DNA from: Squalus acanthias
Taxonomy: Eukaryota
Assembly (NCBI GenBank): GCA_030390025.1
Contig: CM059431.1
Location: 120,158,001 to 120,222,000, forward strand
Reading direction: 5' to 3'
DNA: 64,000 nucleotides
The notes beneath the pieces are model-generated. The model saw only the letters and a program-made list of their open reading frames with translations, ran no database searches and was not told where the DNA came from. Each line of letters begins with the position of its first letter. Positions within the stretch are counted from its first letter, which is position 1. The translations under genes were made by a program, and so were the position numbers. Positions 2 to 52,384 of this stretch are shown one piece after another.

Positions 2-1795
2 GCAGGACACTGGCAGCGAGAGGGTAGTGTGTTAGATTTTGGTGTGAATGTACGAAATGTTATGCAGGAAAAGATAGCAGATTATGTGTTCAGAAAGGTA
101 AATCTAACTAAGAAATGGATAAGTGACCTGTTAGCGGATAAGAGTCCACTAGAGGCAGCCGAGAGGTGGACAGATAGTAAGGAACATAAAAAGACAGTCG
201 AGAAAGCAGTCTGGTTAATGTGTTACAAAAGGCAGGTCCAGATTTCAAACCAGGTCATTACAGCGCAAACAGCTCGGATCAGGCATTTGGAGGAGGAAAT
301 GGATGAGAAAGTCTCTGGAGGGGAGTTGCTCATCAGGAATTTAAGTGCGCTGCACCGAGAACGCCAGGAAATCACCAGTCACCACAAAGCAAAAATAGAT
401 TACCTCGAGTGTCAGGTCACTGAGGCAAAGTTAAGTGAGGGCAGACTAAAGGAATGATGTGCCCGCCAAGCTGCCCAAATAAGAGCCCAGGAAGAGAGCT
501 TAACGGGGGTTAGGGCGGCATATAAGATGGCCCTTGAGGATAAATTTCAGGGGGCCGATCATAGCGCCTGCCAAAAGGAGATAGAGCACCTTAAAAGGGC
601 CGTGAACAAAGCGCACGGCATGGTGTGCCTTATCAGTCCGTCAGCACACCAGCCGCTAGTAGATGAGGAGTTTCAGAAATTCCCACCAAGTAAAGCAAAG
701 GAAGTATTAGCCACTACGCCCTCCGCGCCACCCAGCTATTCGGAAACCTGGGTAAGGGAGGAAGTAGTAGAAGAAACGAAAGAGCCCACTGAGGGAGAAG
801 TGGAAAAGGGACCGTTGTGTCCAGTTACGGGTATAAAAAGGGGCCCAAACGGGAACGGTGGGGAACCAGGGGATCTCCTGAACCAGCTTGTGTTGCCTCA
901 CAGCTCACACCAGCTGAGAGTTATGATAAATCACGTACGGAAGCTGACCGAGTCAGACGACCCTTCCGTACATTTCAGAGAAGTTGAGCAAACCGCAGCC
1001 ATTAACGGCTGCGATGATGGGGAAACAGCAAAAATGCTGTTATTTTCGTTAGGCAGTTCAATCCTTCAGTGTCTCTCGGACGAGAGCAAGAGGGGAACCA
1101 AGACATATGAGGCATTAAAAAATGAGGTCCTAGAAGTGTTGGGGACGGACGATGAAGGTCCGTTTCCTAGAGTGGGACAGACAGTGCAGATGGAGGGAGA
1201 ACCCCCGAAGGTTTTTGCCGACAGGCTGTGGCCAGTATATCAGCGCAGCTGTCCAGGTGCGCCAGAGCGCGACGCTGTGGACGGCGTCGGTTTAACTCAT
1301 TGGCTCAGGTGTATAGTAGCCAACAGTTTGCCAGCCGTCAGAGAGCAGGCAAAAGCGTGGTTTGATCCCACTGACCCCAACATTACGGAAGAGTCGGTCT
1401 TAAATCGACTCACGGTAGGATACCGCAATATAAGGGGTATGGGAACACGTCCCCTTAAGGGAAAAGTACATGAGGTACGACCCGCAGCCCCGGCTCAAAG
1501 GGAGTGGCATCAGGAGGGTAACCGCGCCCCGCAGGCAAGTAATGCTTGTTACGGGTGTGGGAGGACAGGGCACTGGCGCAAGAACTGCAGGAACCCTTGG
1601 AAGGATTCCAGGGATAAAAATCCCGCAGCCCGAGCCCAGATGCCTGTCTCGGTTAGGGAAGCTAGTGCACCCACCCGTCCCGACGACCTCGAAACAGTGT
1701 TGGGAGCCATGCGCAACTTCATGAGTGCACATGGAAAAGTGGCGGTTGCTACCGGCCCCGTAGGTGCCGCAGGCCCGTCTAACCATACCCAATGA
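2..1795 (+). pseudogene. gag: Gag (coiled-coil N-terminus, PSAPPSY late domain, capsid-like region, one CCHC knuckle) with one in-frame nonsense codon
   Basis: ORFs 29-457 and 527-1795 are in the same frame. TGA at 455-457 corresponds to AGA (Arg) in copy B. Knuckle is CYGCGRTGHWRKNC. Start codon lies just upstream of the window. Confidence 0.9.
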
Positions 1796-2902
1796 CTAGA
1801 GCCCACGCAGCCTGCCTACCTGTGTCCTTTTAAAAGACACGCACAGGAGGGCGTCGCCGGTGAGGAGGCCAGGTTAAAAGAGCAGGCCTTGCGGGAGGAG
1901 AACGCCCGCTTAATAGGGAAAATAGATGGGCTGGAAGGGCAGCTTAGAGAGCAGGCCCTGCGGGAGGAGAACGGCCGCTTAATGGGAAAGTTAGACGTGC
2001 TCAGGCTAGAAGGGCAGCTTAGGGAAATAAAAGCAGCCTACCAGGTAGCCAGAAGCAGGGATTTAAACCAGTGCAAACTGTACAAGCCAGGTGCACAAGG
2101 GAAAACCACAGGGGCAAAACCTGCGAGTGGGGACTCGCAGCCCCAGGTAGGACCACAAGGCACACAGGCAGGCAAAGCAGCTTGCATCAGGGGAGGAGAC
2201 ATCCTGGAAAATTGTGAAACATTTTTGTGGGGTTGGGAGTCAGATGAGGGAGAGTTCCCGGAACTCGAGTCAGATGAGGATAGTGATGAGGACGAGTGGG
2301 AATCGGGGAACGCAAGGGTCGCCCCCGATTCAGGTATAGGGAGGACAGGGGCTGCAGATAGAGATCCACACAGGGTGGACACCGAGGCTGCAGGTCCTGA
2401 ACAGAGGAGGGAGGAGCTAGGGGAGGCGGAGCCAGCCACTGTGAGACCACAGGGCGTGACGGCGGAAACCTCAGAGCCCGAGCCGCCCGCCTTGAACGTC
2501 CTGCCCTCGAGGGAGGTAGGGATTGCGAGTGAAGGGCCGCCTGCTGGGCCGAGCAGGGCGGTGCCACAAGCTGCAAGTCCCGAGGTCAGGGAGGCGGAGT
2601 CAGGGGAGGCGGAGCCAGCGACTGTGGTGGGACCACAGGTCGTCCCGGTGGAAGTCTCGGAACCCGGTCCGTCGGTCCTGGGATTCCTGCCCCCGACAAC
2701 TCCTCGTAGGTCAAGTCGAGCACCCCAGCCCAGGAAAATGTGGTCATGTCCCCAGACTGCCCCAAGGCGTAGACTCAAGGTTAAGGCAGCCCAGGTAGGG
2801 CCCAGTCCCATCGCAGCAGCAACAGGCTGCGGCAGATCAAAGGAAGGGGTCAGTGCCCTCCCACCGTCGGGAAGAGCTCGCAGCAGCCTTCTCAGAATTT
2901 AA
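1796..2902 (+). CDS. Readthrough ORF: about 11 Pol N-terminal residues + novel duplicated coiled-coil module + acidic/Pro-rich Pol C-terminal tail (no PR/RT/RH/IN)
   Basis: Open and in frame with gag after TGA-CTAG. Matches copy B pol up to about 1827 and again from about 2064 (NQCKLY.PGAQGKTTG ... RARSSLLRI). Confidence 0.8.
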   Translation, partial: LEPTQPAYLCPFKRHAQEGVAGEEARLKEQALREENARLIGKIDGLEGQLREQALREENGRLMGKLDVLRLEGQLREIKAAYQVARSRDLNQCKLYKPGAQGKTTGAKPASGDSQPQVGPQGTQAGKAACIRGGDILENCETFLWGWESDEGEFPELESDEDSDEDEWESGNARVAPDSGIGRTGAADRDPHRVDTEAAGPEQRREELGEAEPATVRPQGVTAETSEPEPPALNVLPSREVGIASEGPPAGPSRAVPQAASPEVREAESGEAEPATVVGPQVVPVEVSEPGPSVLGFLPPTTPRRSSRAPQPRKMWSCPQTAPRRRLKVKAAQVGPSPIAAATGCGRSKEGVSALPPSGRARSSLLRI

Positions 2903-16200: not shown

Positions 16201-16674
16201 TCTCCCTCCCTCCCCAGTTTGTGTTTCTCTCTTCCCTCCCTCCCCAGTTTGTGTTTCTCTCTCCCTCTCTCCCCAGTTTGTGCCTTTATCTCCCTCCCTC
16301 CCCAGTTTGTGTTTCTCTCTCCCTCCCTCCCCAGTTTTGTCTTTATCTTCCTCCCTCCCCAGTTTGTTTCTTTATCTCCCTCCCTCCCCAGTTTCTGTTG
16401 CTGTCTCAGGACTCAGGGAGTTTCTAGGCAAATTTTGTTGACCCTGATCCTGTCATCCACACAACCGGCAATGAAGTGGTGTGTTCCGAATAACAGGGGG
16501 AACAGCAGGGTCCAACAATGCCTTTTCGTTGCAAGCGACGATATCCAGGTTACTGAACATGCACAAACCGGGCATCCAAGGACCGTTTCTCCAGCGTCTC
16601 CAGCAGCAATGCTCGGGAGACCAATCGCTCATTCTGGGAGACTCCCAGTCAAAGCGGAACAGTTGGGAACCCTT
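10245..16674. mobile_element. Non-autonomous hAT-type DNA transposon carrying an expanded satellite
   Basis: TIRs TAGGGTTGCCAACT (10245) and AGTTGGGAACCCTT (to 16674), 12/14 match. Perfect 8-bp TSD CTCGAAAG at 10237-10244 and 16675-16682. Confidence 0.88.
10745..16395. repeat. Minisatellite array, unit about 22-33 bp, consensus CCCCAGTTTGTGTTTCTCTCTCCCTCTCT
   Basis: Roughly 200 directly visible units that vary in (CT)n length. Confidence 0.98.
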
Positions 16675-17869
16675 CTCGAAAGGCACTTTCAGCTTACAGA
16701 CTTATTTTTTTAAATCATCGAAATGGGAGAGAAAATAGAAAAGTAAATGACATCATAGAAATATTGCAATGGGAAAAATTAAAAAGAAACAGAAGCAGTA
16801 TCGATATAATTATGTGGGGCATGAAGAAGTTGAGAAACATGTTCAATTATGTATTTATCATAACATATTAATGTAACATGCAACAAATGTTGACACCCTG
16901 GCCTCAAGAACACTGCATATTTTAACATTGAGAAAGACAAGGGCAGCAATCTTATAGGATCACCATCACCTGCAAGTTCCCCATCAACTTGGATTCTATT
17001 TAGATTCAATATCCTGGAATCTTTTTATTTGTTCTTGGGATGTAGGCGACACCAGCAAGGGAGCACATATTGTCCATCCCAAATTGCCCTGAGGCCATTG
17101 AGAGTCACATGTAGGCGTGACCAGGTAGCGTTGGCAGAAAAAGAAAAAAAATCAGAAGCAGTGCGCGCAATAAATATATTCGGAAAGGAATAAAATGAGG
17201 AGGAACGATAACCAGGCAGGAAAAGTTCAGATATAAAAATGAGTGGAAGAAAGAGACATATAAAGGTAAAGTAGAGACAAAGAACTAGAGAATTAAATTT
17301 AATGATATGAAATCATAAATATAAAGAAATGAAATGGAGGATTGTATAATAAAATAAATGCAGGAATATAAAAATGAGCAAAGAAGGAAATACATAAAAG
17401 AATAACAACAAAGAAGGAATCTCCTTTATAATGTAAAGAAGCTGACAGAATGACAAGAACAAAATGAATAAAGTAGGATTCAAGGAAAGAACTGATGATA
17501 AAGTTCATTTGAAAGATGAAATAAACCAGCAGCAAAGAGAAAAAAATCAAAGCTACATAGTACTATAAAAAGAGAAAAGGACAAATAAACCCAAAGGGAA
17601 ACAAACCAAAAGTGAACAGAATTAAAAGAAATAGGCGCACATTAATGGATTCTCCCATGACATTGATCTTCCGTAAGTCTGCGCCTGGGTTTGATGTTTT
17701 ATTGTTTACGGGTTTCACTCAAAAAACGACTATAGTTTGCTCATTATTTGTGCATCAAACTTCCTGAAGCACAATGTCCGATGACTGACTTGAATTAAAA
17801 TATTGACATCTTATTGATAATAAAAGGTACAAGTCCCACAGGACTCCCATTCTCCCTCCATAAGCTACA

Positions 17870-37986: not shown

Positions 37987-38619
37987 AAACCTGCTGACAA
38001 GGGTGGCATTGTTGTTGTTTGGCGAACTGAACTCTACCTTGTGGAGGCTGAACGCTAAGTCTCTGACGCCTCCTCCTCCCTCCCCCTGAACCATGACCCC
38101 ACTACCAAACATCAAGCCATCGTTTCCAAGACTGTCACTGATCTCATCGCCTCTGGAGATCTTCCCTCCATGGCTGGCAACCTCATAGTTCCCGAATCCT
38201 GCACGGCCCGCTTCTACCTCCTTACCCAGATCCACAAACCAGACTACCCTGGTAGACCCATCGTTTTAGCCTGTTCTTGCCCCACAGAACTGATTTCTTC
38301 CTATCTTGACTCTATTTTATTTCTCCTCTTATCCAGTCTCATCCCACCTACATCCGCCACTCTTTTGACACCCTCCGCCACTTTAACAATTTCTAGTTTC
38401 CTGGCCCCAACCATCTCCTTTTCACTATGGACGCCCAATTACTCTACACCTCCCACCAGGACGGCCTGAGGGCGCTCCACTTCTTTTTTGAACAGAGGCC
38501 CAACCAGTCCCCATCCACCACCATCCTCCTCCGCCTGGCTGAACTTGTTTTGACATTGAAAAACTTCTCCTTTGACACCACTCACTTTCTCCAATTAAAG
38601 ATGTTGCTATGGGAACCCA
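37987..38619 (+). mobile_element. Penelope-like element, RT 5' part (split by copy B)
   Basis: PADKGG, ARFYLLTQIHK, GRPIV motifs; runs up to AMGT at the LTR boundary. Confidence 0.85.
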
Positions 38620-40329
38620 TGTAAGGGATTCCTGACCCTGCGTGTCTCGCAGCCTGTGAGATTCACGCGGCTCTGTGCAGCCTGTATGTCAGTGCGGGTC
38701 TAGGCCTGGTCTCCAGCCAGTCTGGGAACACTAGACACACCTGCGAGTGGTTCGAATCACTCTCCCTTACGGTTCTAGACACTGGACTTAGATGCGAGAG
38801 CAGTAATGGAGATAAAACTCATGTAGACTTGGTTTGAATGGTACGAAATGGAAAATCTTTATTGCATGATACTTAAAATTATGAAATACATGTCATAAGC
38901 ACAGATTAATGACAGTACAATCTTACAAACAGTTATATAGTCGATCTTAGGGAAACGAGGAACGAACGGCACAAAGTAAATAGGGGCACACATTACAAAT
39001 ATCCTTAATCCTTAAACCCTCCCCTATCAATATCTATCCTAAACTAGATTCGTAGGATCTTGAGACTCATGCTCACCACTCGTGATAACTCGGAGAAATT
39101 CCGAATAGCTGATCGGATGTTTTTCACCGCAGCACCCACGTGTCGGTCAGGAGATCTCCTGGTCCCACTTGTTTACTTGCTTCTGCTGCTCCGGCTAGCA
39201 GGCTGGACCGTCTGCTGTGATGAAGACCTGTGTTGGTTGGCTTAACAGGTACTCTTGGAGCACAGTTGTCAATATCATCGATACGATGTGTTTTCACGTT
39301 CCAATCTCCTTGGACACAGTCCCGTTATCGTCGATGCAATATGTTTTGTTAAAAGTTCAAAAGAGAAATCTTCCTGGCGAGGAAAACTTGGCTAATCGAC
39401 CTACAGGCGCGGTCGGGATTTACTGACCGTGGCGATGGATATGGTCTTCCTCTCTTCTCATCTCATCTCATCTCATCTCATCTCATCTCGGGCCTTTGGT
39501 TCCGCTGCCAGTTACCAACATAGGTCTTCGTTACGCGACACGAGGTAGATCCGAACGGATCAGAAAGTTCAACAGTCTTTTCAGAAGAGGCAACAGGCAA
39601 GCAGAAGCCCAACTACGAGTACACAGGAGCAGCCACGAGGTTACGAATCGACCGGATAAAGGCACAGGAGCAAGCGAGCGAATGCAAGAGCAAGAGAGAG
39701 AATGGACGGTTTGGAGCCTGCAATTATAGTGCAAAAATCTTCCGTTTCCCGCCCAACTATAATGTCCATTCTTTTGTTTAGGGTTTGGCGCCCAAATGTC
39801 TTGTATGGGTGATCTCCGTTCTTAATGGGTTTCGGGGCTACTCGTAAATGTCTGAGTACCTGTTAATATTTCTCCCATTGTTAAATCGGTCGGTGTTCTC
39901 CCTGGAGGGGTTTGGGGCTTCCAAGTGTCCTGTATAACTACCTGCTAACGGCTCTCTCATCGTAGAGTCGTTGGGATTTTACATATTAATGTCTTTTGGA
40001 TGGGCCCTTGAGTACTCGGTACAATGGCTTTCCTTTGTACCTGGGAGACCGATTCCAGTATCTATGTTTATACTGCAAACCCATAATGTCTCGTGTATTA
40101 TCTTCACTGTGCTGAATCGTAATCGATCTTGCACAAATGTTTATTGGAACGCCATCTTGTCTGCCTGTTGAAAAGTCTAGAATGTTCTGTCACGAGGTGC
40201 GGCGGCCATTTTACAGGCTGCTTGTGTCCAATTTAAACCTGCCAGCATTCTGCTGAAATAAAAGCTGTTTGAACGAAACTTTGTGTTTTCTCCTTATTAA
40301 TCACATCGCGATATATTGCGAATTCTACA
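38620..40329 (-). repeat. 3' LTR of copy B (1710 bp)
   Basis: Direct repeat of 49753-51475 apart from a 13-bp deletion near 38707 and two substitutions seen by eye. Confidence 0.97.
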
Positions 40330-40340
40330 GTCCCTCCTGT
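40330..40340 (-). promoter_or_regulatory. Polypurine tract ACAGGAGGGAC
   Basis: Directly abuts the 3' LTR. Confidence 0.7.
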
Positions 40341-40771
40341 TGATGCGAATAACTCCGCTTATCGTATCAAAAATCATAGTGGTGAGCAATATTATCTCGA
40401 TTTCTCTCCGAATCCAGTAAATTAATCCCATAATTTTTAACTTATCTAGGGTCTCTGTGTCGTCCTTATTTCCCAAGAAAATTACATTTTACATCACCGT
40501 AGGCATTATTTGCCCTTAAACTTACACCACTTGTTTTCCTTCCCGGCGTAACCAGGCCGATACCTCTCGTATCACCTGTATATTTGTCTTTTATTCAGGG
40601 AAAGGAAAAAACAAAACCCAAAACCAAACAATCAACACCATCACCAAAATAATCAAAACCCCAACTCTTAAAACATGTCGAGTTCCCAACGTATTTACAA
40701 TCTCTGAAAATCTTATATGAGTACAAACTTCCGCGGCGCACGCGGCGAGCGGGAGTGACGCCATTTTCCGA

Positions 40772-43123
40772 TTACACGGTGCTCTCATCGTGCACGCGCA
40801 CGTAACGTTCTCGCCACTCTCCCGTGTTTTCATGCTTGGTGAGGCGTTTGTCTCTTTTACAATGTATGACCAATAGGTACACTACAATAAACACTTGACA
40901 TACGACTAAAATGTGGGAGGCTATTCTGATCCATGAAGGCACTTCAATATTAGTGAACAGATTCCACCACGGTGGAACTACTATGTCCAAAATGTCTGTT
41001 CCTATTTCGACAGTTTTCTGCTCTAATGTATAAAAATGTTTCTGTGATACCGCGACGGCTTTCAGAAGTTTGGTTAAGTGTTCAGGGAGAGGGGGAATGA
41101 GGTATCCAAAATGCGCGACAAATCGCTGCAAGTCGGTGAAATTCTCTTTTACTGTGAGATGAACAGTGGATGGTTCAGGGATTGGGATGATTCGCTGTTG
41201 TGCTACTTGAACTTCAGCCCTGGGTTTAAAACAGAAACTGCTGTCACTCACCGGACACCGGCTACGGTTTCCATGCTGGTAGTGTTGCGCTGCAGTGGTA
41301 ACACAATATGTTCCACCCCCGATGTATGCTACCTGCGGAGGCACATGATCTTGTGCCATTGCCTCCATGGTGCAATTCATGGACTTGGCGCCAGCCGTTC
41401 TGAACCCGCACTGTGGTGTTAAAAAGGCATTCAAGTGCTGGGGGCACAGTATTATGTGTGCTCCCCTGCCACGACAACCAGAGAGATCTGTACCTGTCAT
41501 CGTTTGCTCCCAGCGGATGACGTAAGGTGGAACCGCTGCATAACGAATGTGGGCTCCCCCCTGAATGACACCAATGTTCTCTACCCGATATACCGGGGCG
41601 GGCTTTGCTGTGTCGCCCAAAACCGGCATGCGTAATACTATTCCCATAATAGTATGGTTTGATCGTCCGCAGTCCACGGGGACTGGGTAAGCTTCTGAAG
41701 CTAGCCTGAGCTGGCACGGACTTAATGCGTTCTGAAAAGGGTGGAGCGCCCGTAGGTGTTTGTTACTTATCCAGGACGGAACCAAACCTTGTTTTAAATC
41801 CTCCAAATTACTGCGGCCCTCGCCCAGTAACCACGCCCCGTAAAGCACGCACACCTCGTTCTGCGCAGCTTGATCGGATGCATTCCGATCTTCCCTGATC
41901 AGGGCATTTACCGTACGCGCATGTTTCTCCAGCTCTGCTATAATTTCCTTTAAATGGAGAGTCATGGCTTGGTCCTCGTGTAGACCTGACCCTACCACTT
42001 TATTCTCATCTGTTAAAATGTCTTTTAACTGTGTCTTTAAACCATTAATCTGGGTCTGCAGCTCCACACTGTCTAGAGCGTTGACCACAGATGTACCTGT
42101 GTTAAAAGCAGTGAACGCATCGTTCACCAAACCCCTTCTTTGCCTCCCTACTTGATCCAAAACTTCCTGTGGTGCGGTGTACAAACTTGTTTTATCAATT
42201 TCTGCAAAATCGAATTCGTAAAATTGTCTGAACATCTTGGTCAACAGGACCTGGTACAACTGTTCCGTCTTTTTGGGGCACCATTCTGGTAACCGCACCT
42301 CGGTGAGATTTAAAATCACCGAGGCCACCGCGTAATGTACCCCCTGAAATAGTATCTGGTCTGTGGGGACCAGTACCAAACCATTCCCGGGTCCCTTACT
42401 AGTTTTTGGGCACCCTTCTTCCTCAGCTAGAACCACCGGAATCGTGGGCGGGGCTTTGCGTGGGCGCGTAATGAGTTCAGTGGCATTTACTGGGATCGGG
42501 GAGAATGGGGCTCCGCACCCCCTGGTGCTCGCATCCCACCTCATCCCCTGTCCGTTATCCTGCCATTGATTAATAAAAAATATGGAGATGCCTTTGGGGC
42601 AAACGTACTTTGACCCCCACATACATACATAAATTCCCTCATCCGGTTCCCACCATTTGTCCCAACAGACTTTCACTTGTCCGTCTGTCCCCGTAATTGT
42701 CCGATGGGTATTATTACCCAGTCGTTCCCACTCGACCGAAGAGTTCCTCATAGTTTTGCTCAGCTTTCGTAGCCACCACCATCGGCTCAATGGGACATTC
42801 CCACTACAAGTCAAACAAATCCGTTTGCCGACGGTGACGCTGATCCTGGGTGCGATGATCCTTACTTTGGGGCACAGTAAAGAAGTCTCTTTGTAGGCAA
42901 ACCCCGAGGTGCTAGAATACTCCGTTGAGTTCGTTCCCAGCCATCCTGGCCACCTTCCCTTGTGGAAATAGGTGCTGGTCCCCTCTGCCTTCCGTCTTCC
43001 GGTCCCATCCACCGCGATGGGGGCCGTGTCCCCGGAACATCCAAACACCACGACATCCTTGGTGCGGCCTCGATAGGCCAATCCACATCCGATTGCCACG
43101 AGCAATACTAGAATTCGTTCCAT
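40772..43123 (-). CDS. env: Env glycoprotein, 783 aa (signal peptide, Ig-like domain, F-like class I fusogen, TM)
   Basis: Intact ORF with the same motifs as 3206-5557; about 27 amino-acid differences by manual count. Confidence 0.9.
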   Translation of the reverse strand: MERILVLLVAIGCGLAYRGRTKDVVVFGCSGDTAPIAVDGTGRRKAEGTSTYFHKGRWPGWLGTNSTEYSSTSGFAYKETSLLCPKVRIIAPRISVTVGKRICLTCSGNVPLSRWWWLRKLSKTMRNSSVEWERLGNNTHRTITGTDGQVKVCWDKWWEPDEGIYVCMWGSKYVCPKGISIFFINQWQDNGQGMRWDASTRGCGAPFSPIPVNATELITRPRKAPPTIPVVLAEEEGCPKTSKGPGNGLVLVPTDQILFQGVHYAVASVILNLTEVRLPEWCPKKTEQLYQVLLTKMFRQFYEFDFAEIDKTSLYTAPQEVLDQVGRQRRGLVNDAFTAFNTGTSVVNALDSVELQTQINGLKTQLKDILTDENKVVGSGLHEDQAMTLHLKEIIAELEKHARTVNALIREDRNASDQAAQNEVCVLYGAWLLGEGRSNLEDLKQGLVPSWISNKHLRALHPFQNALSPCQLRLASEAYPVPVDCGRSNHTIMGIVLRMPVLGDTAKPAPVYRVENIGVIQGGAHIRYAAVPPYVIRWEQTMTGTDLSGCRGRGAHIILCPQHLNAFLTPQCGFRTAGAKSMNCTMEAMAQDHVPPQVAYIGGGTYCVTTAAQHYQHGNRSRCPVSDSSFCFKPRAEVQVAQQRIIPIPEPSTVHLTVKENFTDLQRFVAHFGYLIPPLPEHLTKLLKAVAVSQKHFYTLEQKTVEIGTDILDIVVPPWWNLFTNIEVPSWIRIASHILVVCQVFIVVYLLVIHCKRDKRLTKHENTGEWRERYVRVHDESTV

Positions 43124-43412
43124 CCTTCCTTGGTTCCTGTGATCAGATAGAATGAGGTAGCCAGCCTCGCAAGAGTCTCTGGCTTTTGTGAAGGGTGAGC
43201 GGGTCCCCTGACCTCGCCTCACGTAAACTTCAACGTTTGCTGAATAAACTTCCACTAAACCTATCTTTAAAAACTCCCATCATTTTATCGTTTTCTGTTA
43301 AAAACACTACAAACTTAGCCTTATTAAAAAAAACTATAAACTTAACCTTGAACTATAAACTTAAAACTTAACTTCTTACTATACAGTGCCGCCCGTTCTC
43401 AGGGCGGCCCCT

Positions 43413-46400
43413 TTAAATTCTGAGAAGGCTGCTGCGAGCTCTTCCCGACGGTGGGAGGGCACTGACCCTTCCCTCTGATCTGCCGCAGCCTGTTGCTGCG
43501 CTGACCTTTCCCTCTGATCTGCCGCAGCCTGTTACTGCTGCGATGTGGCCGGTCTGTACCCGGGTTATCTTAACCTGAAGTCTACGCCTTGGGGCAGTCT
43601 GGGGACATGACCACATCCTCCTGGGCTGGGGTTCTCTGCTTGACCTACGGGGAGTTGCTATGGGCGGGGGTTCCGTGACGGACGGACCGGGTTCCGAGAC
43701 CTCCAACGGGATGACCTGGGGTTCCATCACAGTCGCCGGCTCCGCCTCCGCTGACTCCGCCTCCCTAACCTCGGGGCTGGCAGTTCGTGGCTCCGCCCTG
43801 CTCGGCCCAGCAGGCGGCCCTTCACTCGTGATCTCTGCCTCCCCTGAGGACTGGACGTTCAAAGCGGGCGGCCACATCTCTGGGAGCCACACCGGTACTC
43901 TCTGTGCTCCTATAGCGGCTGGCCCTGCCTCCTCTAGCTCCTCCCTCCTGTCCTCGGGACCTGCAGCTTGTGTGTCCACCCTGTGTGGGTCTCTACCTAT
44001 AGGCCCCATTCCTTCCAGACCGTTCCTCAGGAACCACCCGTCATCATCACTATGCTCATCTGCACTATCCTCATCTGACCAGGGTACCCTGGGTTCTTCC
44101 TCATCTAACCCCCAACTCCAGAAAAACGCTGCATGATCGTCCGGGATGTCCCTTCCCCTGATGCAAGCTGCTATGCCTGCCTGTGTGCCTTGTGGTCCTA
44201 CCTGGGGCTGTGCTTTCCCATTGGCGGGATTTACCCCTGTAGTTTTCCCCTGCGCACCTGGCTGGTACAGTTTGCATTGGTTTATGTGGAACCACTTAGT
44301 GCGCCGAGGTACTTTTACGGCGTAAACCATGGGACTCGCCTTGTCTACAATGTTGTAGGGTCCCATATACAGTGGTTCCAGACTCCCTACTCTGGCGTAG
44401 TTTCTGACCATGACCTGGTCTCCTACTTCCCACTCCCGCGTTTTGCGGGGTTCCAGCAACAAGCGATTGCCCTGATGCTGCCTTCCCATGTTCCCAGCCG
44501 CCTGCTCATAAACTTGCTTCAGGCGCTCCAAGAGAGTCTGGGCGAACTTGTCCCTGCTTATCTCTTGGAGCTGACCCTCAGTGAGCACCGGTGCTAGCAC
44601 ATGGGTGGGGGTTCGCATGAGCCTCCCAGTCATTACCTCGTGCGGGGAGTACCCCGTACTTTTTGACTGACTGGCCCGGACCCCCATGAGGACTAAAGGC
44701 AGAACTTCCGCCCATTTTTGGGGCGAGTTCCTAGTCTCTTTCCTCAATTTCTCCTTCAGGGTCCGGTTCATACGTTCAACAATCCCGGATGACTGGGGAT
44801 TGTGTGCTACGTGCCACTTCCCTTCAATGCCCAAAAGCATGAGGGTGTTCTGCATCACCTGGCCGGTGAAATGACTCCCTTGGTCTGACTCCACAAAACG
44901 GGGAAGTCCCCACCGCGAGAACACTTCCCGGACCAAGATTTTTGCTGTACCCAGTGCCGTAGCTGTTCGACAAGGGAAGGCTTCCACCCACTTGGAAAAC
45001 ACATCCACCAGGACGAGGCAGTACTTATAACCTCCCTGGGTGGTGGGCAGGGGTCCTATATAGTCGATCTGTATCGACTGCCATGGTCCCTCTACCCTTC
45101 TTACGTGTCCCATGGGCACCTTCCTTTTCTGGGGGTCTGGGTTGTTTGCAGCGCACACAAGACAGTTTGCACAGAACTCGCGGACTTGTTCCCTGAGCCC
45201 TGGCCACCATCCCGCTTGCTCTACCCGTTGCCAGGTAACCTCGGGCCCGGGGTGCCCTGCCCCTGGTCCCTCGTGAGCCAACTGGAGGAATTCCCTCCTG
45301 TGCTGCTGCGGCACAACCCACTGCTCCTCGCGGAACAGCATGCCTTCCTTAACTGAGAGGGTTGCCGTACTGTACGGACCTTCTACCCGCCTCCCCTCAG
45401 CAATCGTTTTTAGGACTGCTTTTAGGGCGGGATCCTGGGCTTGGACGGTCTTGAGGTCTAGGGGCAATGCTACCCTGGTGTTCCCGGGATTCCCATCCCC
45501 GCCTCGGACCGCTGCTATGGGTCCGGTCCTATAGGGGTTCCAGAAAATGCCGTCGCGGGCACCCTCCCTGGCTAGCGCATCCGCCTGCCGGTTGCCCTCC
45601 CCACGGGGCTCTGTGGAGGAGTGAGCTTTCACCTTATGGATGAAAGTCTCTCCTTCCTCCCCTACTGCTGCTGCTAAGATCTTTTCCAGCAAGGGCTTCA
45701 CCGTTAAAGGTCGCCCGTCCGCGGAGGTGTATCCGCGGCGGGACCAAATGGCCAGGTATTCCGTACACGAATTGCAGGTGAACATACTGTCCGAGCAAAT
45801 CGTGTATGGGGTTGGGAAAATGTCTGGGTGGGTCACAACGTACACCACGGCAGACAGCTCAGCCTGCTGCGCGCTCATGGTGCTAGGGAGCTTGATTGCC
45901 AGGGCAAGGTCTGCCGCAGGGTCATAAACTCCACACCCTGTGAGTCGCTCGCCAGCAGACACTGTGCTAGACCCATCAACATAAATCTCGCGCCCAGTGG
46001 GATGTATCCCGGCCCGTAAACCTATGTTGACATCCCACACCCCTTCCACCGAACACCGGTGGGCTGTACCGGGGTATACCAAATTGGCCGCAAGCCTGGG
46101 CTCGCAAAGACCTTTTACTCTAAGATCCAACTGGGAGAGAAGAAGGGTCCAACGCGCAATGCGTGCGCTGCTTACGGTCCCGTCTTTAATCCTCCCATCC
46201 AGAAGCATCTTAGTTGGTGTGTGATGTGTGAGGAGAGTGATGGGAGAGAGCCCTGTGAAGATCGCTGATCTTTTCACAGCCCAATGCGTGGCTAAAAGGT
46301 GCCTTTCGCAATTGGAGAAACTTCTCTCCACATCCGTTAATACCCTGGATGAGTAGACAACCGGCCTCAGCTTGCCGTGACGCTCTTGGAGCAGCACGGC

Positions 46401-47936
46401 GCTTAAGCTGTCTCCGCTGGCAGCTACCTCCAGGAAAAACTCCTTCCCCCCATCTATGGCCCCTAAGGCTGGCGCGGTCTGCAGATCCCCTTTTAACTTC
46501 TCGAAGGCTGCTTGGCAGCCCTCGTCCCAAAGCCACTCCACCCCCTTATGGAGGAGTCGGAGGAGCGGCGCCGCTGTGGCCGCATAATCTTCGATAAAAT
46601 CCCTGCAGTAACCGGTCAGTCCCAAGAAGGACCTCACACCCCTTACGTTGTTGGGAATCGGTAATTCTTGCACCGACTCCCTCCTTGCTTTGTCTATGGC
46701 TCTTTCCCCAGCGCGTATGGTCAGTCCCAGGAATTTTACTTCCCGCTGACCGATACGTGCTTTCTTAGGGTTTATTTTAAAACCCTTTCTCGCTAACAGT
46801 TCCAATAACTCGTCCAGTAGTGGTCCGTGCTCCTCCCTTGAGTCCGTAAATAGGAGCAAATCATCCACATACTGTACTATCTGATTGGGCTGACTAAACT
46901 CCTTTAAGCTTCCTGCCATACACTGATGAAAAATACTGGGGCTATTGTGGAAACCCTGTGGCAGACAGTTCCACGTGTACTGTTGCCCTTTGAAAGTAAA
47001 GGCAAACTTGTACTGGTCCTCTCGCCGCAGCGGGATGGACCAAAAACCGTTCGAGATATCCAGCACCGTGAACGTGGTCGCGGACGCTGGGATGCTCCCT
47101 ATTAGGTCAGCAACTGCTGCTACTGTGGGCGCGCAGGCGGGAATGTTACTGTTAAGGACTCTGTAGTCCACCGTGGCTCTCCACGAATTATCCGGCTTCC
47201 TAACCGGCCATAATGGGGAGTTCACGTGTGTGGCTATCGGCCTCAACACGCCCTGCTGCACCAAGGAAGACATTGCTGTCTCCATATCGGGTTCTGCTTC
47301 TTTGGGGAAGTTATACTGCTTTTGGGGTCGGGTCATGGGGTCCCCATCTACGCTGACCTCAAACCCGACCACTCTCCCACAATCGTGCTTGTGGGTTGCA
47401 AACGCGTGCATATTATCTGACACGTACGTTTGCATGTCCGTTGGGACATCTGCGACCATAAGCCTGAGGTCGTAGCCTCCGGATGGCTGTACGGTACACA
47501 GGACCCCTGTTTCTTCCTCCCCCGGAATCACTATTACCTCGCCTTTTTCACCTTTAGCCCCCCAGAGACAGTGATTTCTGAGGTCCACGAGGATCCCGTG
47601 TCCCGCTAGGAGATCGGACCCGAGAATACCTCTTCCACCCCCCTTTTGCCATGCCATCAGTATACACTTCCACTTAAGGCGAAGTGTTCCTAAACGAATG
47701 GATAGCGGAAGGGAAAACGTGCCAGCCTGTTCTTTTCCTGTGAACCCTGCCAACGTGAATGGGACCTTGGTAGATAGCGGCGAGTCAAAAGGGTTATCTG
47801 TATGGATTATGGTGCAAGAAGCTCCCGTGTCCAACAAATAACTGCCCTTCTGTTTCTCTACCTCCATCTCCACCACAGGTCGCCTCCACGCATCATAGCT
47901 AAGCGGACACAGGTAGACGGGCTGTGCTGGTTCTAG
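43413..47936 (-). CDS. pol: Pol: aspartic protease, RT, degenerate RNase H (tether), RNase H, integrase, GPY motif, about 290-aa low-complexity tail; probably made by gag stop readthrough
   Basis: LLDTGAS and GILGSDLL; LPQGFHNSP and YVDD; IYVDGSS..AEL..SDS..GNRQAD; HHCC plus IDYIGP, SDQGSHF, VERMN. The frame is open right up to the gag TGA. Confidence 0.96.
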   Translation of the reverse strand, partial: LEPAQPVYLCPLSYDAWRRPVVEMEVEKQKGSYLLDTGASCTIIHTDNPFDSPLSTKVPFTLAGFTGKEQAGTFSLPLSIRLGTLRLKWKCILMAWQKGGGRGILGSDLLAGHGILVDLRNHCLWGAKGEKGEVIVIPGEEETGVLCTVQPSGGYDLRLMVADVPTDMQTYVSDNMHAFATHKHDCGRVVGFEVSVDGDPMTRPQKQYNFPKEAEPDMETAMSSLVQQGVLRPIATHVNSPLWPVRKPDNSWRATVDYRVLNSNIPACAPTVAAVADLIGSIPASATTFTVLDISNGFWSIPLRREDQYKFAFTFKGQQYTWNCLPQGFHNSPSIFHQCMAGSLKEFSQPNQIVQYVDDLLLFTDSREEHGPLLDELLELLARKGFKINPKKARIGQREVKFLGLTIRAGERAIDKARRESVQELPIPNNVRGVRSFLGLTGYCRDFIEDYAATAAPLLRLLHKGVEWLWDEGCQAAFEKLKGDLQTAPALGAIDGGKEFFLEVAASGDSLSAVLLQERHGKLRPVVYSSRVLTDVERSFSNCERHLLATHWAVKRSAIFTGLSPITLLTHHTPTKMLLDGRIKDGTVSSARIARWTLLLSQLDLRVKGLCEPRLAANLVYPGTAHRCSVEGVWDVNIGLRAGIHPTGREIYVDGSSTVSAGERLTGCGVYDPAADLALAIKLPSTMSAQQAELSAVVYVVTHPDIFPTPYTICSDSMFTCNSCTEYLAIWSRRGYTSADGRPLTVKPLLEKILAAAVGEEGETFIHKVKAHSSTEPRGEGNRQADALAREGARDGIFWNPYRTGPIAAVRGGDGNPGNTRVALPLDLKTVQAQDPALKAVLKTIAEGRRVEGPYSTATLSVKEGMLFREEQWVVPQQHRREFLQLAHEGPGAGHPGPEVTWQRVEQAGWWPGLREQVREFCANCLVCAANNPDPQKRKVPMGHVRRVEGPWQSIQIDYIGPLPTTQGGYKYCLVLVDVFSKWVEAFPCRTATALGTAKILVREVFSRWGLPRFVESDQGSHFTGQVMQNTLMLLGIEGKWHVAHNPQSSGIVERMNRTLKEKLRKETRNSPQKWAEVLPLVLMGVRASQSKSTGYSPHEVMTGRLMRTPTHVLAPVLTEGQLQEISRDKFAQTLLERLKQVYEQAAGNMGRQHQGNRLLLEPRKTREWEVGDQVMVRNYARVGSLEPLYMGPYNIVDKASPMVYAVKVPRRTKWFHINQCKLYQPGAQGKTTGVNPANGKAQPQVGPQGTQAGIAACIRGRDIPDDHAAFFWSWGLDEEEPRVPWSDEDSADEHSDDDGWFLRNGLEGMGPIGRDPHRVDTQAAGPEDRREELEEAGPAAIGAQRVPVWLPEMWPPALNVQSSGEAEITSEGPPAGPSRAEPRTASPEVREAESAEAEPATVMEPQVIPLEVSEPGPSVTEPPPIATPRRSSREPQPRRMWSCPQTAPRRRLQVKITRVQTGHIAAVTGCGRSEGKVSAATGCGRSEGRVSALPPSGRARSSLLRI

Positions 47937-49748
47937 TCATGGGGCACTATTAGACGGTCCTGCGGCACCTACGGGGCCGGTTGCGACCGCCACCTGTCCA
48001 CGCGCATTCAAAACCAGCTTGCGCATGGCTCCTAACACTGCTTCGAGGTCGTCGGGAGGGGTGGGTGCCTTGGCTTCCTTAGCCGGGACAGGCGCCTGGG
48101 CTCGCACCGCGGGATTTTTATCCTTGGAATCCTTCCAAGGGTTCCTGCAATGCTTGCGCCAGTGCCCTGTCTTCCCACACCCGTAACAAGCATTACTTGC
48201 CTGTGGGGCGCGATTACCCTCCTGATGCCACTCTCTTTGATACGGGGCTGCGGGTCGTACCTCATGTACTCTTCCCTTAAGGGGACGTGTTGCCATACCC
48301 CTTATATTGCGATAACCTAACGTGAGTCGATTCAAGACCGACTCTTCCGTAATGTTGAGGTCATTGGGATCAAACCATGCTTTTGCCTGCTCTCTAACGG
48401 CTGGTAAACTGTTGGCTATTATGCACCTAAGCCAATGAGTTAAAGCGGCGCCTTCCACATCTTCGCGCTCGGGCGCACCTAGACAGCTGCGCTCATATAC
48501 TGGCCACAGCCTGTCGGCAAAAACCTTCGGGGGTTCTCCCTCCATCTGCACTGTCTGTCCCACTCTAGCAAACGGACCTTCGTCGTTCGCCCCCAACACT
48601 TCTAGGACCTCGTTCTTTAATTCCTCATAACTCTTGGTTCCCCTCTTGCTCTCGCCTGAGAGACACTGAAGGACCGAGCTGTCTAATGAGAACAGCAGCA
48701 TTTTTGCTGTCTCCCCATCATCGCAGCCGTTAATGGCTGCGGCTTGCTCAACTTCTCTGAAATGTACGGAAGGGTCGTCTATCTCGGTCAGCTTCCGTAC
48801 GTGATTTATCATAGCTCTCAGCTGATGTGAACTGTGAGGCAACACCAGCTGTCCGAGGAGATCCCCCGGTTCTTCCCCACCGTTTCTGCTTGGGCCCCTT
48901 TTAATACCCGTTACTGGATACAACGATCCCTTTTCTGCTTCCTTTTCAAAGGGCTCTTTTGTTTCTTCCATTGCTTCCTCCCTAACCCAGGTTTCTGAAT
49001 AGCTGGGTGGCGCGGAGGGCGCAGTGGCTACTACTTCTTCTGCTTTACTTGGTGGGGATTTTCTAAATCTCTCATTTACTAGCGGCTGGTGCGCCGACGG
49101 ATTGATAAGGCACACCATGCCGTTCGCATTGTTCACGGCCTTTTTGAGGTTCTCTATCTCCCTTTGGCAGGCGCTATGATCGGCTCCCTGAAACTTATCC
49201 TCAAGGGCCAACTTATATGCCGACCTAACCCCCATTAAGCTCTCTTCTTGAGTTCTTATCTGGGCAGCTTGGCGGTTACATCTTTCCTTTAACCTGCTCT
49301 CATTCAATTTTGCCTCAGTGACCTGGCACTCGAGATAATCTATCCTTGTTTTAAGGTGACTGGAGACTTCCTGGCTTTCTTGGTGTAACTCATTTAAATT
49401 CTTAATGAGCACCTCCCCTCCAGAAACCTTCTCCTCCATTTCTCCCTCTAAATGACTGATTCGAGCTACTAGCGCTGTAATGGTCTGGTTTGAAATCTGA
49501 ACCTGCCTTTTGTAACACATAAGCCAGACTGCTTTCTCAAGTGTCTTTCTATGTTCTTTACTATCTGTCCACCTTTCAGCTGCCTCTAGTGGGCTCTTAT
49601 CCGCTAACAATTCACTTATCCATTTCTTAGTTAGATTAACCTTTCCAAACACATAATCCGCTATCTTTTCCTGCATAACATTTCGTACAGTCATTCCAAA
49701 ATCTAACACACTACCCTCTCGCTGCCAGTGTCCTGCCGCGGTCGCCAT
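47937..49748 (-). CDS. gag: Gag, 603 aa (coiled coil, PSAPPSY late domain, capsid-like region, CCHC knuckle)
   Basis: ATG in AAAATGG context at 49748; CYGCGKTGHWRKHC; uninterrupted. Confidence 0.93.
   Translation of the reverse strand: MATAAGHWQREGSVLDFGMTVRNVMQEKIADYVFGKVNLTKKWISELLADKSPLEAAERWTDSKEHRKTLEKAVWLMCYKRQVQISNQTITALVARISHLEGEMEEKVSGGEVLIKNLNELHQESQEVSSHLKTRIDYLECQVTEAKLNESRLKERCNRQAAQIRTQEESLMGVRSAYKLALEDKFQGADHSACQREIENLKKAVNNANGMVCLINPSAHQPLVNERFRKSPPSKAEEVVATAPSAPPSYSETWVREEAMEETKEPFEKEAEKGSLYPVTGIKRGPSRNGGEEPGDLLGQLVLPHSSHQLRAMINHVRKLTEIDDPSVHFREVEQAAAINGCDDGETAKMLLFSLDSSVLQCLSGESKRGTKSYEELKNEVLEVLGANDEGPFARVGQTVQMEGEPPKVFADRLWPVYERSCLGAPEREDVEGAALTHWLRCIIANSLPAVREQAKAWFDPNDLNITEESVLNRLTLGYRNIRGMATRPLKGRVHEVRPAAPYQREWHQEGNRAPQASNACYGCGKTGHWRKHCRNPWKDSKDKNPAVRAQAPVPAKEAKAPTPPDDLEAVLGAMRKLVLNARGQVAVATGPVGAAGPSNSAP
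49730..49747 (-). promoter_or_regulatory. Primer-binding site TGGCGACCGCGGCAGGAC (tRNA-Ser-like pattern)
   Basis: TGG starts 5 nt after the LTR-terminal CA. TGGCG-N7-CAGGA resembles complements of vertebrate tRNA-Ser 3' ends; the exact tRNA is not verified. Confidence 0.65.
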
Positions 49749-49752
49749 TTTC

Positions 49753-51475
49753 TGTAAGGGATTCCTGACCCTGCGTGTCTCGCAGCCTGTGAGATTCACG
49801 CGGCTCTGTGCAGCCTGTATGTCAGTGCGGGTCTAGGCCTTGTTGCCTGTTCTGGTCTCCAGCCAGTCTAGGAACACTAGACACACCTGCGAGTGGTTCG
49901 AATCACTCTCCCTTACGGTTCTAGACACTGGACTTAGATGCGAGAGCAGTAATGGAGATAAAACTCATGTAGACTTGGTTTGAATGGTACGAAATGGAAA
50001 ATCTTTATTGCATGATACTTAAAATTATGAAATACATGTCATAAGCACAGATTAATGACAGTACAATCTTACAAACAGTTATATAGTCGATCTTAGGGAA
50101 ACGAGGAACGAACGGCACAAAGTAAATAGGGGCACACATTACAAATATCCTTAATCCTTAAACCCTCCCCTATCAATATCTATCCTAAACTAGATTCGTA
50201 GGATCTCGAGACTCATGCTCACCACTCGTGATAACTCGGAGAAATTCCGAATAGCTGATCGGATGTTTTTCACCGCAGCACCCACGTGTCGGTCAGGAGA
50301 TCTCCTGGTCCCACTTGTTTACTTGCTTCTGCTGCTCCGGCTAGCAGGCTGGACCGTCTGCTGTGATGAAGACCTGTGTTGGTTGGCTTAACAGGTACTC
50401 TTGGAGCACAGTTGTCAATATCATCGATACGATGTGTTTTCACGTTCCAATCTCCTTGGACACAGTCCCGTTATCGTCGATGCAATATGTTTTGTTAAAA
50501 GTTCAAAAGAGAAATCTTCCTGGCGAGGAAAACTTGGCTAATCGACCTACAGGCGCGGTCGGGATTTACTGACCGTGGCGATGGATATGGTCTTCCTCTC
50601 TTCTCATCTCATCTCATCTCATCTCATCTCATCTCGGGCCTTTGGTTCCGCTGCCAGTTACCAACATAGGTCTTCGTTACGCGACACGAGGTAGATCCGA
50701 ACGGATCAGAAAGTTCAACAGTCTTTTCAGAAGAGGCAACAGGCAAGCAGAAGCCCAACTACGAGTACACAGGAGCAGCCACGAGGTTACGAATCGACCG
50801 GATAAAGGCACAGGAGCAAGCGAGCGAATGCAAGAGCAAGAGAGAGAATGGACGGTTTGGAGCCTGCAATTATAGTGCAAAAATCTTCCGTTTCCCGCCC
50901 AACTATAATGTCCATTCTTTTGTTTAGGGTTTGGCGCCCAAATGTCTTGTATGGGTGATCTCCGTTCTTAATGGGTTTCGGGGCTACTCGTAAATGTCTG
51001 AGTACCTGTTAATATTTCTCCCATTGTTAAATCGGTCGGTGTTCTCCCTGGAGGGGTTTGGGGCTTCCAAGTGTCCTGTATAACTACCTGCTAACGGCTC
51101 TCTCATCGTAGAGTCGTTGGGATTTTACATATTAATGTCTTTTGGATGGGCCCTTGAGTACTCGGTACAATGGCTTTCCTTTGTACCTGGGAGACCGATT
51201 CCAGTATCTATGTTTATACTGCAAACCCATAATGTCTCGTGTATTATCTTCACTGTGCTGAATCGTAATCGATCTTGCACAAATGTTTATTGGAACGCCA
51301 TCTTGTCTGCCTGTTGAAAAGTCTAGAATGTTCTGTCACGAGGTGCGGCGGCCATTTTACAGGCTGCTTGTGTCCAATTTAAACCTGCCAGCATTCTGCT
51401 GAAATAAAAGCTGTTTGAACGAAACTTTGTGTTTTCTCCTTATTAATCACATCGCGATATATTGCGAATTCTACA
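49753..51475 (-). repeat. 5' LTR of copy B (1723 bp)
   Basis: Minus strand TGTAGAATTCGC...CCCTTACA; TATAAT at 50869-50874 with an upstream GC box. Confidence 0.97.
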
Positions 51476-52384
51476 CCCATATAGGTCCTAGCTATGCCTA
51501 CCTTTTCGTGGGATATATGAAACATTCTTTGTTCAAGTGCTACTCAGGTCCCCTCCCTCACCTCTTTATCCGGTACATTGATGACTGTCTCGGTGCCGCT
51601 TCCTGCTCTCGACCTGAACTAGAAAATTTCATTCCCCTTGCTTCCAATTTCCACCCTTCCCTCACCTTCACATGGTCCATCTCCGACTCTTCCCTTCCCT
51701 TCCTCAACTTCTCCGTCAACATTTCTGGGGATAGGCTATCGACAAATATCAACTGTAAGCCCACTGACTCCCACAGCTACCTGGACTACACTTCCTCCCA
51801 CCCCACTTCCTGTAAGGACTCAATTCCATTCTCCCAGTTTCTCTGTCTCCGTCTGTTTTGCCAACTTCCATACTAGTGCTAACGATATGTCTTCCTTTTT
51901 CCTCAACCGAGAATTCCCCTCTACCATGGTTGACACGGTCCTCGACTGTGTCCATTCCATTTCCCGTACTTCTGCTCTTGCCCATTCCCCTCCCTCCGAG
52001 AACCACAATAGAGTTCCCATTGTCCTCACCTTTCATCCCACCAGCCTCCACATTCAATGGATCATCCTCCGCCATTTCTGCCACCTCCAGCGTGAGCCCA
52101 CCACCAAACACATGTTCCCCTCCCCTCCACTTTCAGCATTCTGAAGGGACCACTCCCTCCGCAACACCCTGGTCCACTCTTCAATCACCCCCAACACCCC
52201 CACCCCTTTCGACGGCACCTTCCCATGCAAGCGCAGGAGATGCAACACTTGCTCTTTTACCTCCTTCCTTCCCACTGTCCAGGGCCCCAAACACGGCTTC
52301 TGTGTGAAACAGCGATTTACTTGTACTTCTTGCAATTTAGTATACTGTATTCGCTGCTTATGATGCGGTCTCCTGTACATTAAG
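51476..52384 (+). mobile_element. Penelope-like element, RT 3' part and start of GIY-YIG region
   Basis: GPSYA, RYIDD, LPFL, KPTDSH.YL, Cys motifs. Removing the provirus restores AMGTHIGPSYA. Confidence 0.85.

Follow-up and report, generated by a model that had tools for sequence, protein, structure and literature searches.

A UGA-CUAG context at the gag-pol junction of an endogenous retrovirus of Squalus acanthias points to probable Pol expression by type II readthrough

We analyzed a stretch of 64,000 nucleotides of Squalus acanthias DNA (NCBI GenBank assembly GCA_030390025.1, contig CM059431.1, positions 120,158,001 to 120,222,000 of the forward strand), referred to here as the window and numbered from its first letter, which holds two copies, A and B, of an endogenous retrovirus. 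The arrangement of gag and pol in this element points to a type II UGA readthrough of the gag stop as the very probable means by which Pol is made. An initial annotation of the window had read the gag TGA of copy B, on the minus strand at 47939-47937, as being followed in frame by CTA GAA CCA; this is borne out, and the frame behind the stop remains open for 1507 codons, down to 43413 (-). A single in-frame stop thus separates two intact frames, gag and pro-pol, and the proposed readthrough signal, the UGA together with CUAG, occupies 47933..47939 (-).

Counting both strands of the window, CTAG stands directly behind 4 of the 2116 TGA triplets (0.19%), and two of these four occurrences are the gag stops of copies A and B; the presence of UGA-CUAG at both gag stops is more than chance would give. 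The match between the two copies is weak evidence when taken alone, because they are ~88% identical around the stop. The annotation had reported the same context in copy A, and CAA TGA CTA G is indeed present there at 1790-1799 (+), with the signal itself at 1793..1799, but no protease lies behind it, the similarity between the copies ending ~32 nt past the stop. The stop context is kept in 2/2 window copies, a statement that covers those two DNA junctions. With regard to the features by which readthrough sites are classed, both copies have the UGA followed at once by CUA(G) that defines type II, and in copy B the downstream frame is open, coding and without a start of its own across protease, reverse transcriptase (RT), RNase H as well as integrase (1507 codons). 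Type III is marked by a UAG with GG and then a purine-rich spacer behind it, which the copy B junction lacks.

The position of the protease relative to the first available start codon bears directly on how Pol is entered. While the annotation had counted 20 sense codons before the conserved RPVVEMEV, the number is 18; its claim that no AUG lies ahead of the conserved protease start held up, as no AUG occurs in frame until codon 24 after the stop (47865..47867, -), within the protease fold, with the catalytic Asp at codon 36, 12 codons further on. The AlphaFold prediction for the 136 post-stop codons (from a 17-row alignment; mean predicted local distance difference test score, pLDDT, 82) is that of a retropepsin, in which residues 10-120, encoded at 47577..47909 (-), align with residues 1-99 of HIV-1 protease (Z 12.0, root-mean-square deviation 2.8, 99 aligned). 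In this model a start at codon 24 would remove ~14 residues of the fold, strands E6-11 and the greater part of E20-26 among them. The Pfam RVP match begins at codon 17, also ahead of the first AUG, and by eye the stretch before the AUG is similar to what follows the stop in an SnRV-like locus (L093) and in a coelacanth relative. Given that the modeled protease fold starts ~14 residues ahead of the first AUG, Pol must, on this model, be entered from upstream of it.

The end of Gag appears to be a conserved feature. The C-terminal ends of 4/4 related Gags, 44-84% identical, coincide in the alignment, namely those of copies B and A, of a skate model (52%) and of a further protein (44%), and as judged from sequence the gag stop is not an accident. 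A search of public sequencing runs matched 20, from at least 6 coded organisms and none of them recorded as RNA. Four public sequencing runs were available over 47300-50300. Position 47941, 2 nt before the stop, varies in all four; no variant falls within the 7-nt motif among the 40 variants listed of 442, and none of the 8 listed contig joints resembles a splice into pol, neither of which is proof.

The same signal is found in other retroviruses. In the available part of the PMC7947760 supplement an in-frame UGA-CUA stands at the gag end of 7 of the 24 lokiretrovirus consensus sequences (frames assigned by eye), as CUAG in Ofa, Cne, Pyo and Sau and as CUAA in Bsp, Dcl and Lro, the Bsp consensus having a frame slip further on past the junction. 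The Tfu lokiretrovirus Gag protein reads X-L-S at the corresponding place. Thus every readable lokiretrovirus junction stop (7/7) is UGA-CUA, although these share ancestry; six of the 24 sequences, in which the junction is missing or unseen, stand outside the count. A bullfrog class III provirus related to XtERV-S, in the available part of the PMC8278194 supplement, likewise ends gag with UGA-CUAG, on which that part makes no comment, and XtERV-S has UGA-CAGG. As a control we took 92 loci of other retroviruses, many of them redundant, of which 34 gave no call; the 58 junction calls comprised 54 UAG-G, 4 other or broken and 0 UGA-CUA, so that the contrast drawn by the annotation with the UAG of gammaretroviruses holds. 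Two of these loci, the SnRV-like L093 and an SSSV-like L089, were named by junction match to the available part of PMC13517186. In a metagenome retroviral locus (L068:1065-1073) the junction is UGA-GGA, 39 codons ahead of the protease Asp.

Readthrough is a textbook mechanism of gag-pol expression, and in murine leukaemia virus readthrough of a UAG sets a low Pol:Gag ratio. The proposal in the annotation that Pol of the Squalus element arises by UGA readthrough is supported by the layout of the two frames, the conserved end of Gag and the recurrence of these six nucleotides in retroviral lineages that are only distantly related, each of which would fit such a mechanism. Unspliced proviral RNA would be translated from the gag AUG, with the majority of ribosomes terminating at the UGA to release Gag, while a small share would decode the UGA by a near-cognate tRNA, the adjoining CUAG serving to weaken termination. 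Ribosomes that passed the stop would make Gag-X-Pro-Pol, where X is the presumed residue at the UGA, and the protease would then cut this product. The outcome would be a low Pol:Gag ratio, with a rate that by analogy may be a few percent. In the available part of PMC4132726, UGA-CUAG drives readthrough in four human genes, for which 12 nt of 3' context is enough, and with UGA-CUA by itself readthrough in human cells is 1.5%. Since the core motif is conserved through vertebrates (PMC4132726, same part), a shark ribosome should respond to it.

RNA structure may add to readthrough at the copy B stop, but folding of the downstream region gave no convincing 3' stimulator. A weak 6-bp hairpin predicted 10 nt after the stop (47907..47927, -) can form in both copies and is a lead only. 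A long predicted stem-loop starts 40 nt after the stop (47748..47897, -) and is absent from copy A; with z of -3.6 to -4.7 it ranks third of 103 windows in a region that is structured overall (mean z -1.25). We did not accept this stem-loop as a classic stimulator, given its offset of 40 nt, the two windows that fold better and the structured nature of the whole region.

Several observations weigh against readthrough. Junction DNA covers only two members of the element's clade, copies A and B, and a coelacanth model (P0011, with a 44% identical Pol) is continuous, with no stop at the matching position; this is a gene model only, but given it the stop may be non-universal within the clade. Ten of the 24 lokiretrovirus consensus sequences (Oja, Sri, Sme, Str, Ame, Xla, Xtr, Npa, Pfl and Pma) are labeled as fused gag-pol in the available part of the PMC7947760 supplement, these being labels only. 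There is no clear 3' stimulator at the usual distance, as seen with folding tools that predict no pseudoknots. Between the stop and the first AUG a single candidate splice acceptor is present, a pyrimidine-rich stretch ending in AG (47899..47916, -), and in a crude count of pyrimidines it scores equal to a candidate acceptor for env. Finally, in the available part of PMC2194720, the gag-UGA-pol junction of the Candida albicans element Tca2, a copia element of unrelated lineage that also carries its two genes in one frame, did not bring about readthrough when placed in a yeast reporter.

The acceptor candidate brings to mind a spliced pol mRNA as in foamy viruses, in which an upstream exon with a start codon would be joined to an acceptor behind the gag stop. 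The RT core does give a better score with foamy RT (157 bits) than with the RT of murine leukaemia virus (114 bits), the element is not placed with foamy RTs yet a clade with foamy viruses is not rejected by the approximately unbiased test (P value, p-AU, 0.19), and the AG at 47899 is preceded by 12 pyrimidines in 17 positions, which puts it beyond the 95th percentile among 780 AGs. However, in 3/3 foamy loci an AUG of pol's own stands where the protease begins, with no long open reading frame in the same frame ahead of it, and neither holds for the element; moreover, splicing at 47899 would lose codons 10-12 of the protease fold and would leave both the CUAG and the shared frame unexplained, and we consider this route very unlikely. 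A strict-pattern search of LTR (long terminal repeat) and gag for a donor found none, although the pattern is too insensitive, since env requires a donor. Less probable again is an independent start of Pol at the AUG at 47867, by reinitiation or from an internal promoter. This AUG has a good Kozak context (G at -3 and +4), an AUG also occurs soon after the stop in a close relative (P0007) and in the lokiretrovirus consensus Lro, and the available part of PMC2194720 describes a promoter of minor activity at the Tca2 junction, an example of how reporters can be misled by junctions of this kind. On the other hand, the product would, by the structural model, miss ~14 residues of the protease fold, two out-of-frame AUGs intervene between the stop and 47867, and the Dcl consensus, in the same supplement as Lro, has GTG in place of the Lro ATG. 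A free Pol would in addition need a separate route into the particle.

It is still harder to credit that the stop arose by nonsense mutation of a formerly fused gag-pol frame and spread with a successful subfamily. The fused lokiretrovirus labels and the continuous coelacanth model are what such a history would predict, and copy A has a premature stop elsewhere in gag; yet Gags with 44% and 52% identity share their end position, copy B has intact pol and env between LTRs that are 99.1% identical, and a random stop would only rarely be followed by CTAG, as the window counts indicate. The least probable account is that the UGA is decoded as selenocysteine under a 3' selenocysteine insertion sequence (SECIS) element. 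The codon is a UGA and the host a vertebrate, but the 7 Rfam matches over 38500-51600 (E up to 1) include no SECIS family, and the CUAG can be accounted for without selenocysteine.

If type II readthrough is taken as the working model, the element can be compared with known systems, for several of which we had the relevant part of PMC13517186, a 2026 review. The gamma- and epsilonretroviruses treated there (MoMLV, WDSV, SnRV) have the same architecture, gag and pro-pol in one frame with a single stop that lies behind the zinc knuckle and ahead of the DTG motif; from the stop to the DTG motif it is 36 codons in copy B and 27-41 in the UAG-G control loci. They differ in that theirs is a type III UAG-G, with a pseudoknot in MoMLV, whereas the element has a type II UGA-CUAG and no clear pseudoknot, as seen with tools that do not model pseudoknots; according to the review, epsilonretroviral readthrough is unverified. 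UGA junctions as such are known, from SSSV (UGAAGA), ZFERV (UGACGA) and the toad RMEV (UGAAGU) in the review and from XtERV-S (UGACAG) in PMC8278194. In these, too, the UGA separates a gag and a pol that share one frame, the hosts are aquatic, and readthrough is assumed; in the available parts of both sources none has CUA behind the stop. The identical 7-nt core is instead that of Sindbis virus, chikungunya virus, PSIV and the human genes AQP4, OPRL1, OPRK1 and MAPK10, sites that require little or no downstream structure. The site in the element differs from these in that it would set a retroviral Gag:Pol ratio; the available part of the review lists no retrovirus under type II and places UGACUA in alphaviruses, a triatovirus and cellular genes only. 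A retroviral gag-pol UGA-CUA is likewise not reported in the open literature that we searched, with subscription journals, Repbase and Dfam outside that scope, and none of the terms readthrough, stop codon, frameshift and suppress occurs in the main text of PMC7947760. The new part is the CUA(G) context, as UGA at a gag-pol junction was already known.

One reading of this distribution, which we regard as doubtful, is that UGA-CUA was the ancestral Pol strategy of lokiretroviruses and all other retroviruses; it would then have been kept in a subgroup of lokiretroviruses, in a basal clade of shark, frog and coelacanth elements and in some class III elements, and been replaced elsewhere by UAG with a pseudoknot, -1 frameshifting, splicing or fusion. 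Convergence is more likely, because the motif has only six letters, it arose in alphaviruses and in host genes, and the lineages with it are separated from one another by others whose junctions are fused or UAG. Were readthrough of UGA-CUA confirmed, it would represent a third retroviral solution to readthrough, a short structure-independent signal present in at least three deep lineages and the same as that used by the vertebrate hosts' own genes, such as AQP4. It would offer an inexpensive, virus-free reporter test. The motif would also provide a rule by which to annotate split 'gag' and 'NYNRIN-like' gene models, of which fish, shark and frog genomes have thousands. According to the available part of PMC1224870 the mode of gag-pol expression is a taxonomic marker for retroviruses, and the junction type could serve as a character for asking which gag-pol strategy arose first.

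As for the element's own relationships, its nearest named Env and Gag relatives are from skate, sawshark and other cartilaginous fishes, and its nearest Pols are frog and coelacanth proteins labeled NYNRIN-like, 44-46% identical. In a tree of RT plus tether it falls in a clade with the frog and coelacanth Pols (Shimodaira-Hasegawa-like approximate likelihood ratio 95), on the retrovirus side and outside SnRV, epsilon and gamma, and on this sequence evidence the element groups near the base of the retroviruses. These were quick trees of 36-38 chosen rows, built without ERV-L, CmiFLERV or XtrFLERV references. Lokiretroviruses share with the element a dual RNase H, a putatively F-like Env and a coiled-coil Gag head, but no cartilaginous-fish host appears in the available part of PMC7947760, and assignment of the element to them was rejected, its RT lying outside the lokiretrovirus clade (p-AU 0.0004; IQ-TREE, 36 rows; lokiretrovirus labels assigned by eye via P0016-18 and P0017 against that supplement). 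The clade may instead be a basal, foamy-like lineage of sharks and frogs, as represented by CmiFLERV and XtrFLERV in the available part of PMC5512871. DNA of the element's clade had no match in the metagenome and viral contigs searched, in which there was no lokiretrovirus locus either; these contigs were the source of the 92 control loci of other retroviruses.

Copy B has the layout of an endogenous retrovirus, LTR-primer-binding site-gag-pro-pol-env-LTR with a target-site duplication and dual RNase H. Its 5' LTR (49753..51475, -) and 3' LTR (38620..40329, -) are 99.1% identical over 1723 columns, and because of this identity and the flanking 4-bp target-site duplication we regard it as a young, complete provirus. 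At 49753-50300, in two small runs guessed to be RNA, the contig depth of the LTR is many times that of gag, more so than in two DNA runs, which may reflect LTR transcripts or solo LTRs. The gag gene (47937..49748, -; 603 codons) has a coiled-coil-like N-terminus and one CCHC knuckle; its AUG at 49748 sits within the primer-binding site (49748-49730, -), a few bases past the 5' LTR. The pro-pol frame (43413..47936, -) encodes protease, RT, tether, RNase H, integrase and a low-complexity tail, the last of ~290 residues beyond the integrase (43413-44280, -), acidic and proline-rich with short repeats and no Pfam match.

The env gene (40772..43123, -; 783 codons from the AUG at 43123) has features of an F-type fusogen and possibly an Ig-like head. 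Its product gave Atlas features of 0.93-0.94 to the Gypsy, Baculo_F and Fusion_gly clusters, no Pfam match and no BLASTP match to a lokiretrovirus-like fragment, and a structure predicted from the single sequence was unusable (pLDDT 33). Residues 132-225 (42886-42605, -), at the front of this putative F-type Env, have weak immunoglobulin V-type matches (E about 1), and the frog model P0008 has, by eye, an Ig-like stretch after the integrase at its end.

Copy A lacks protease, RT, RNase H and integrase altogether. Behind its gag stop is an open frame of 368 codons (1796..2902, +) made up of 11 codons from the protease side, a coiled-coil-like piece that is repeated and the tail of Pol, and readthrough would yield Gag fused to the repeated piece and the tail. 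Its gag has a premature stop at 455-457 (+) and its env is intact; dN/dS between the copies is 0.35 for gag, 0.74 for the tail and 0.14 for env. Elsewhere in the window, at 10650-16700, lies a 6-kb satellite of 23-31-nt units with a strong strand skew, open in several frames.

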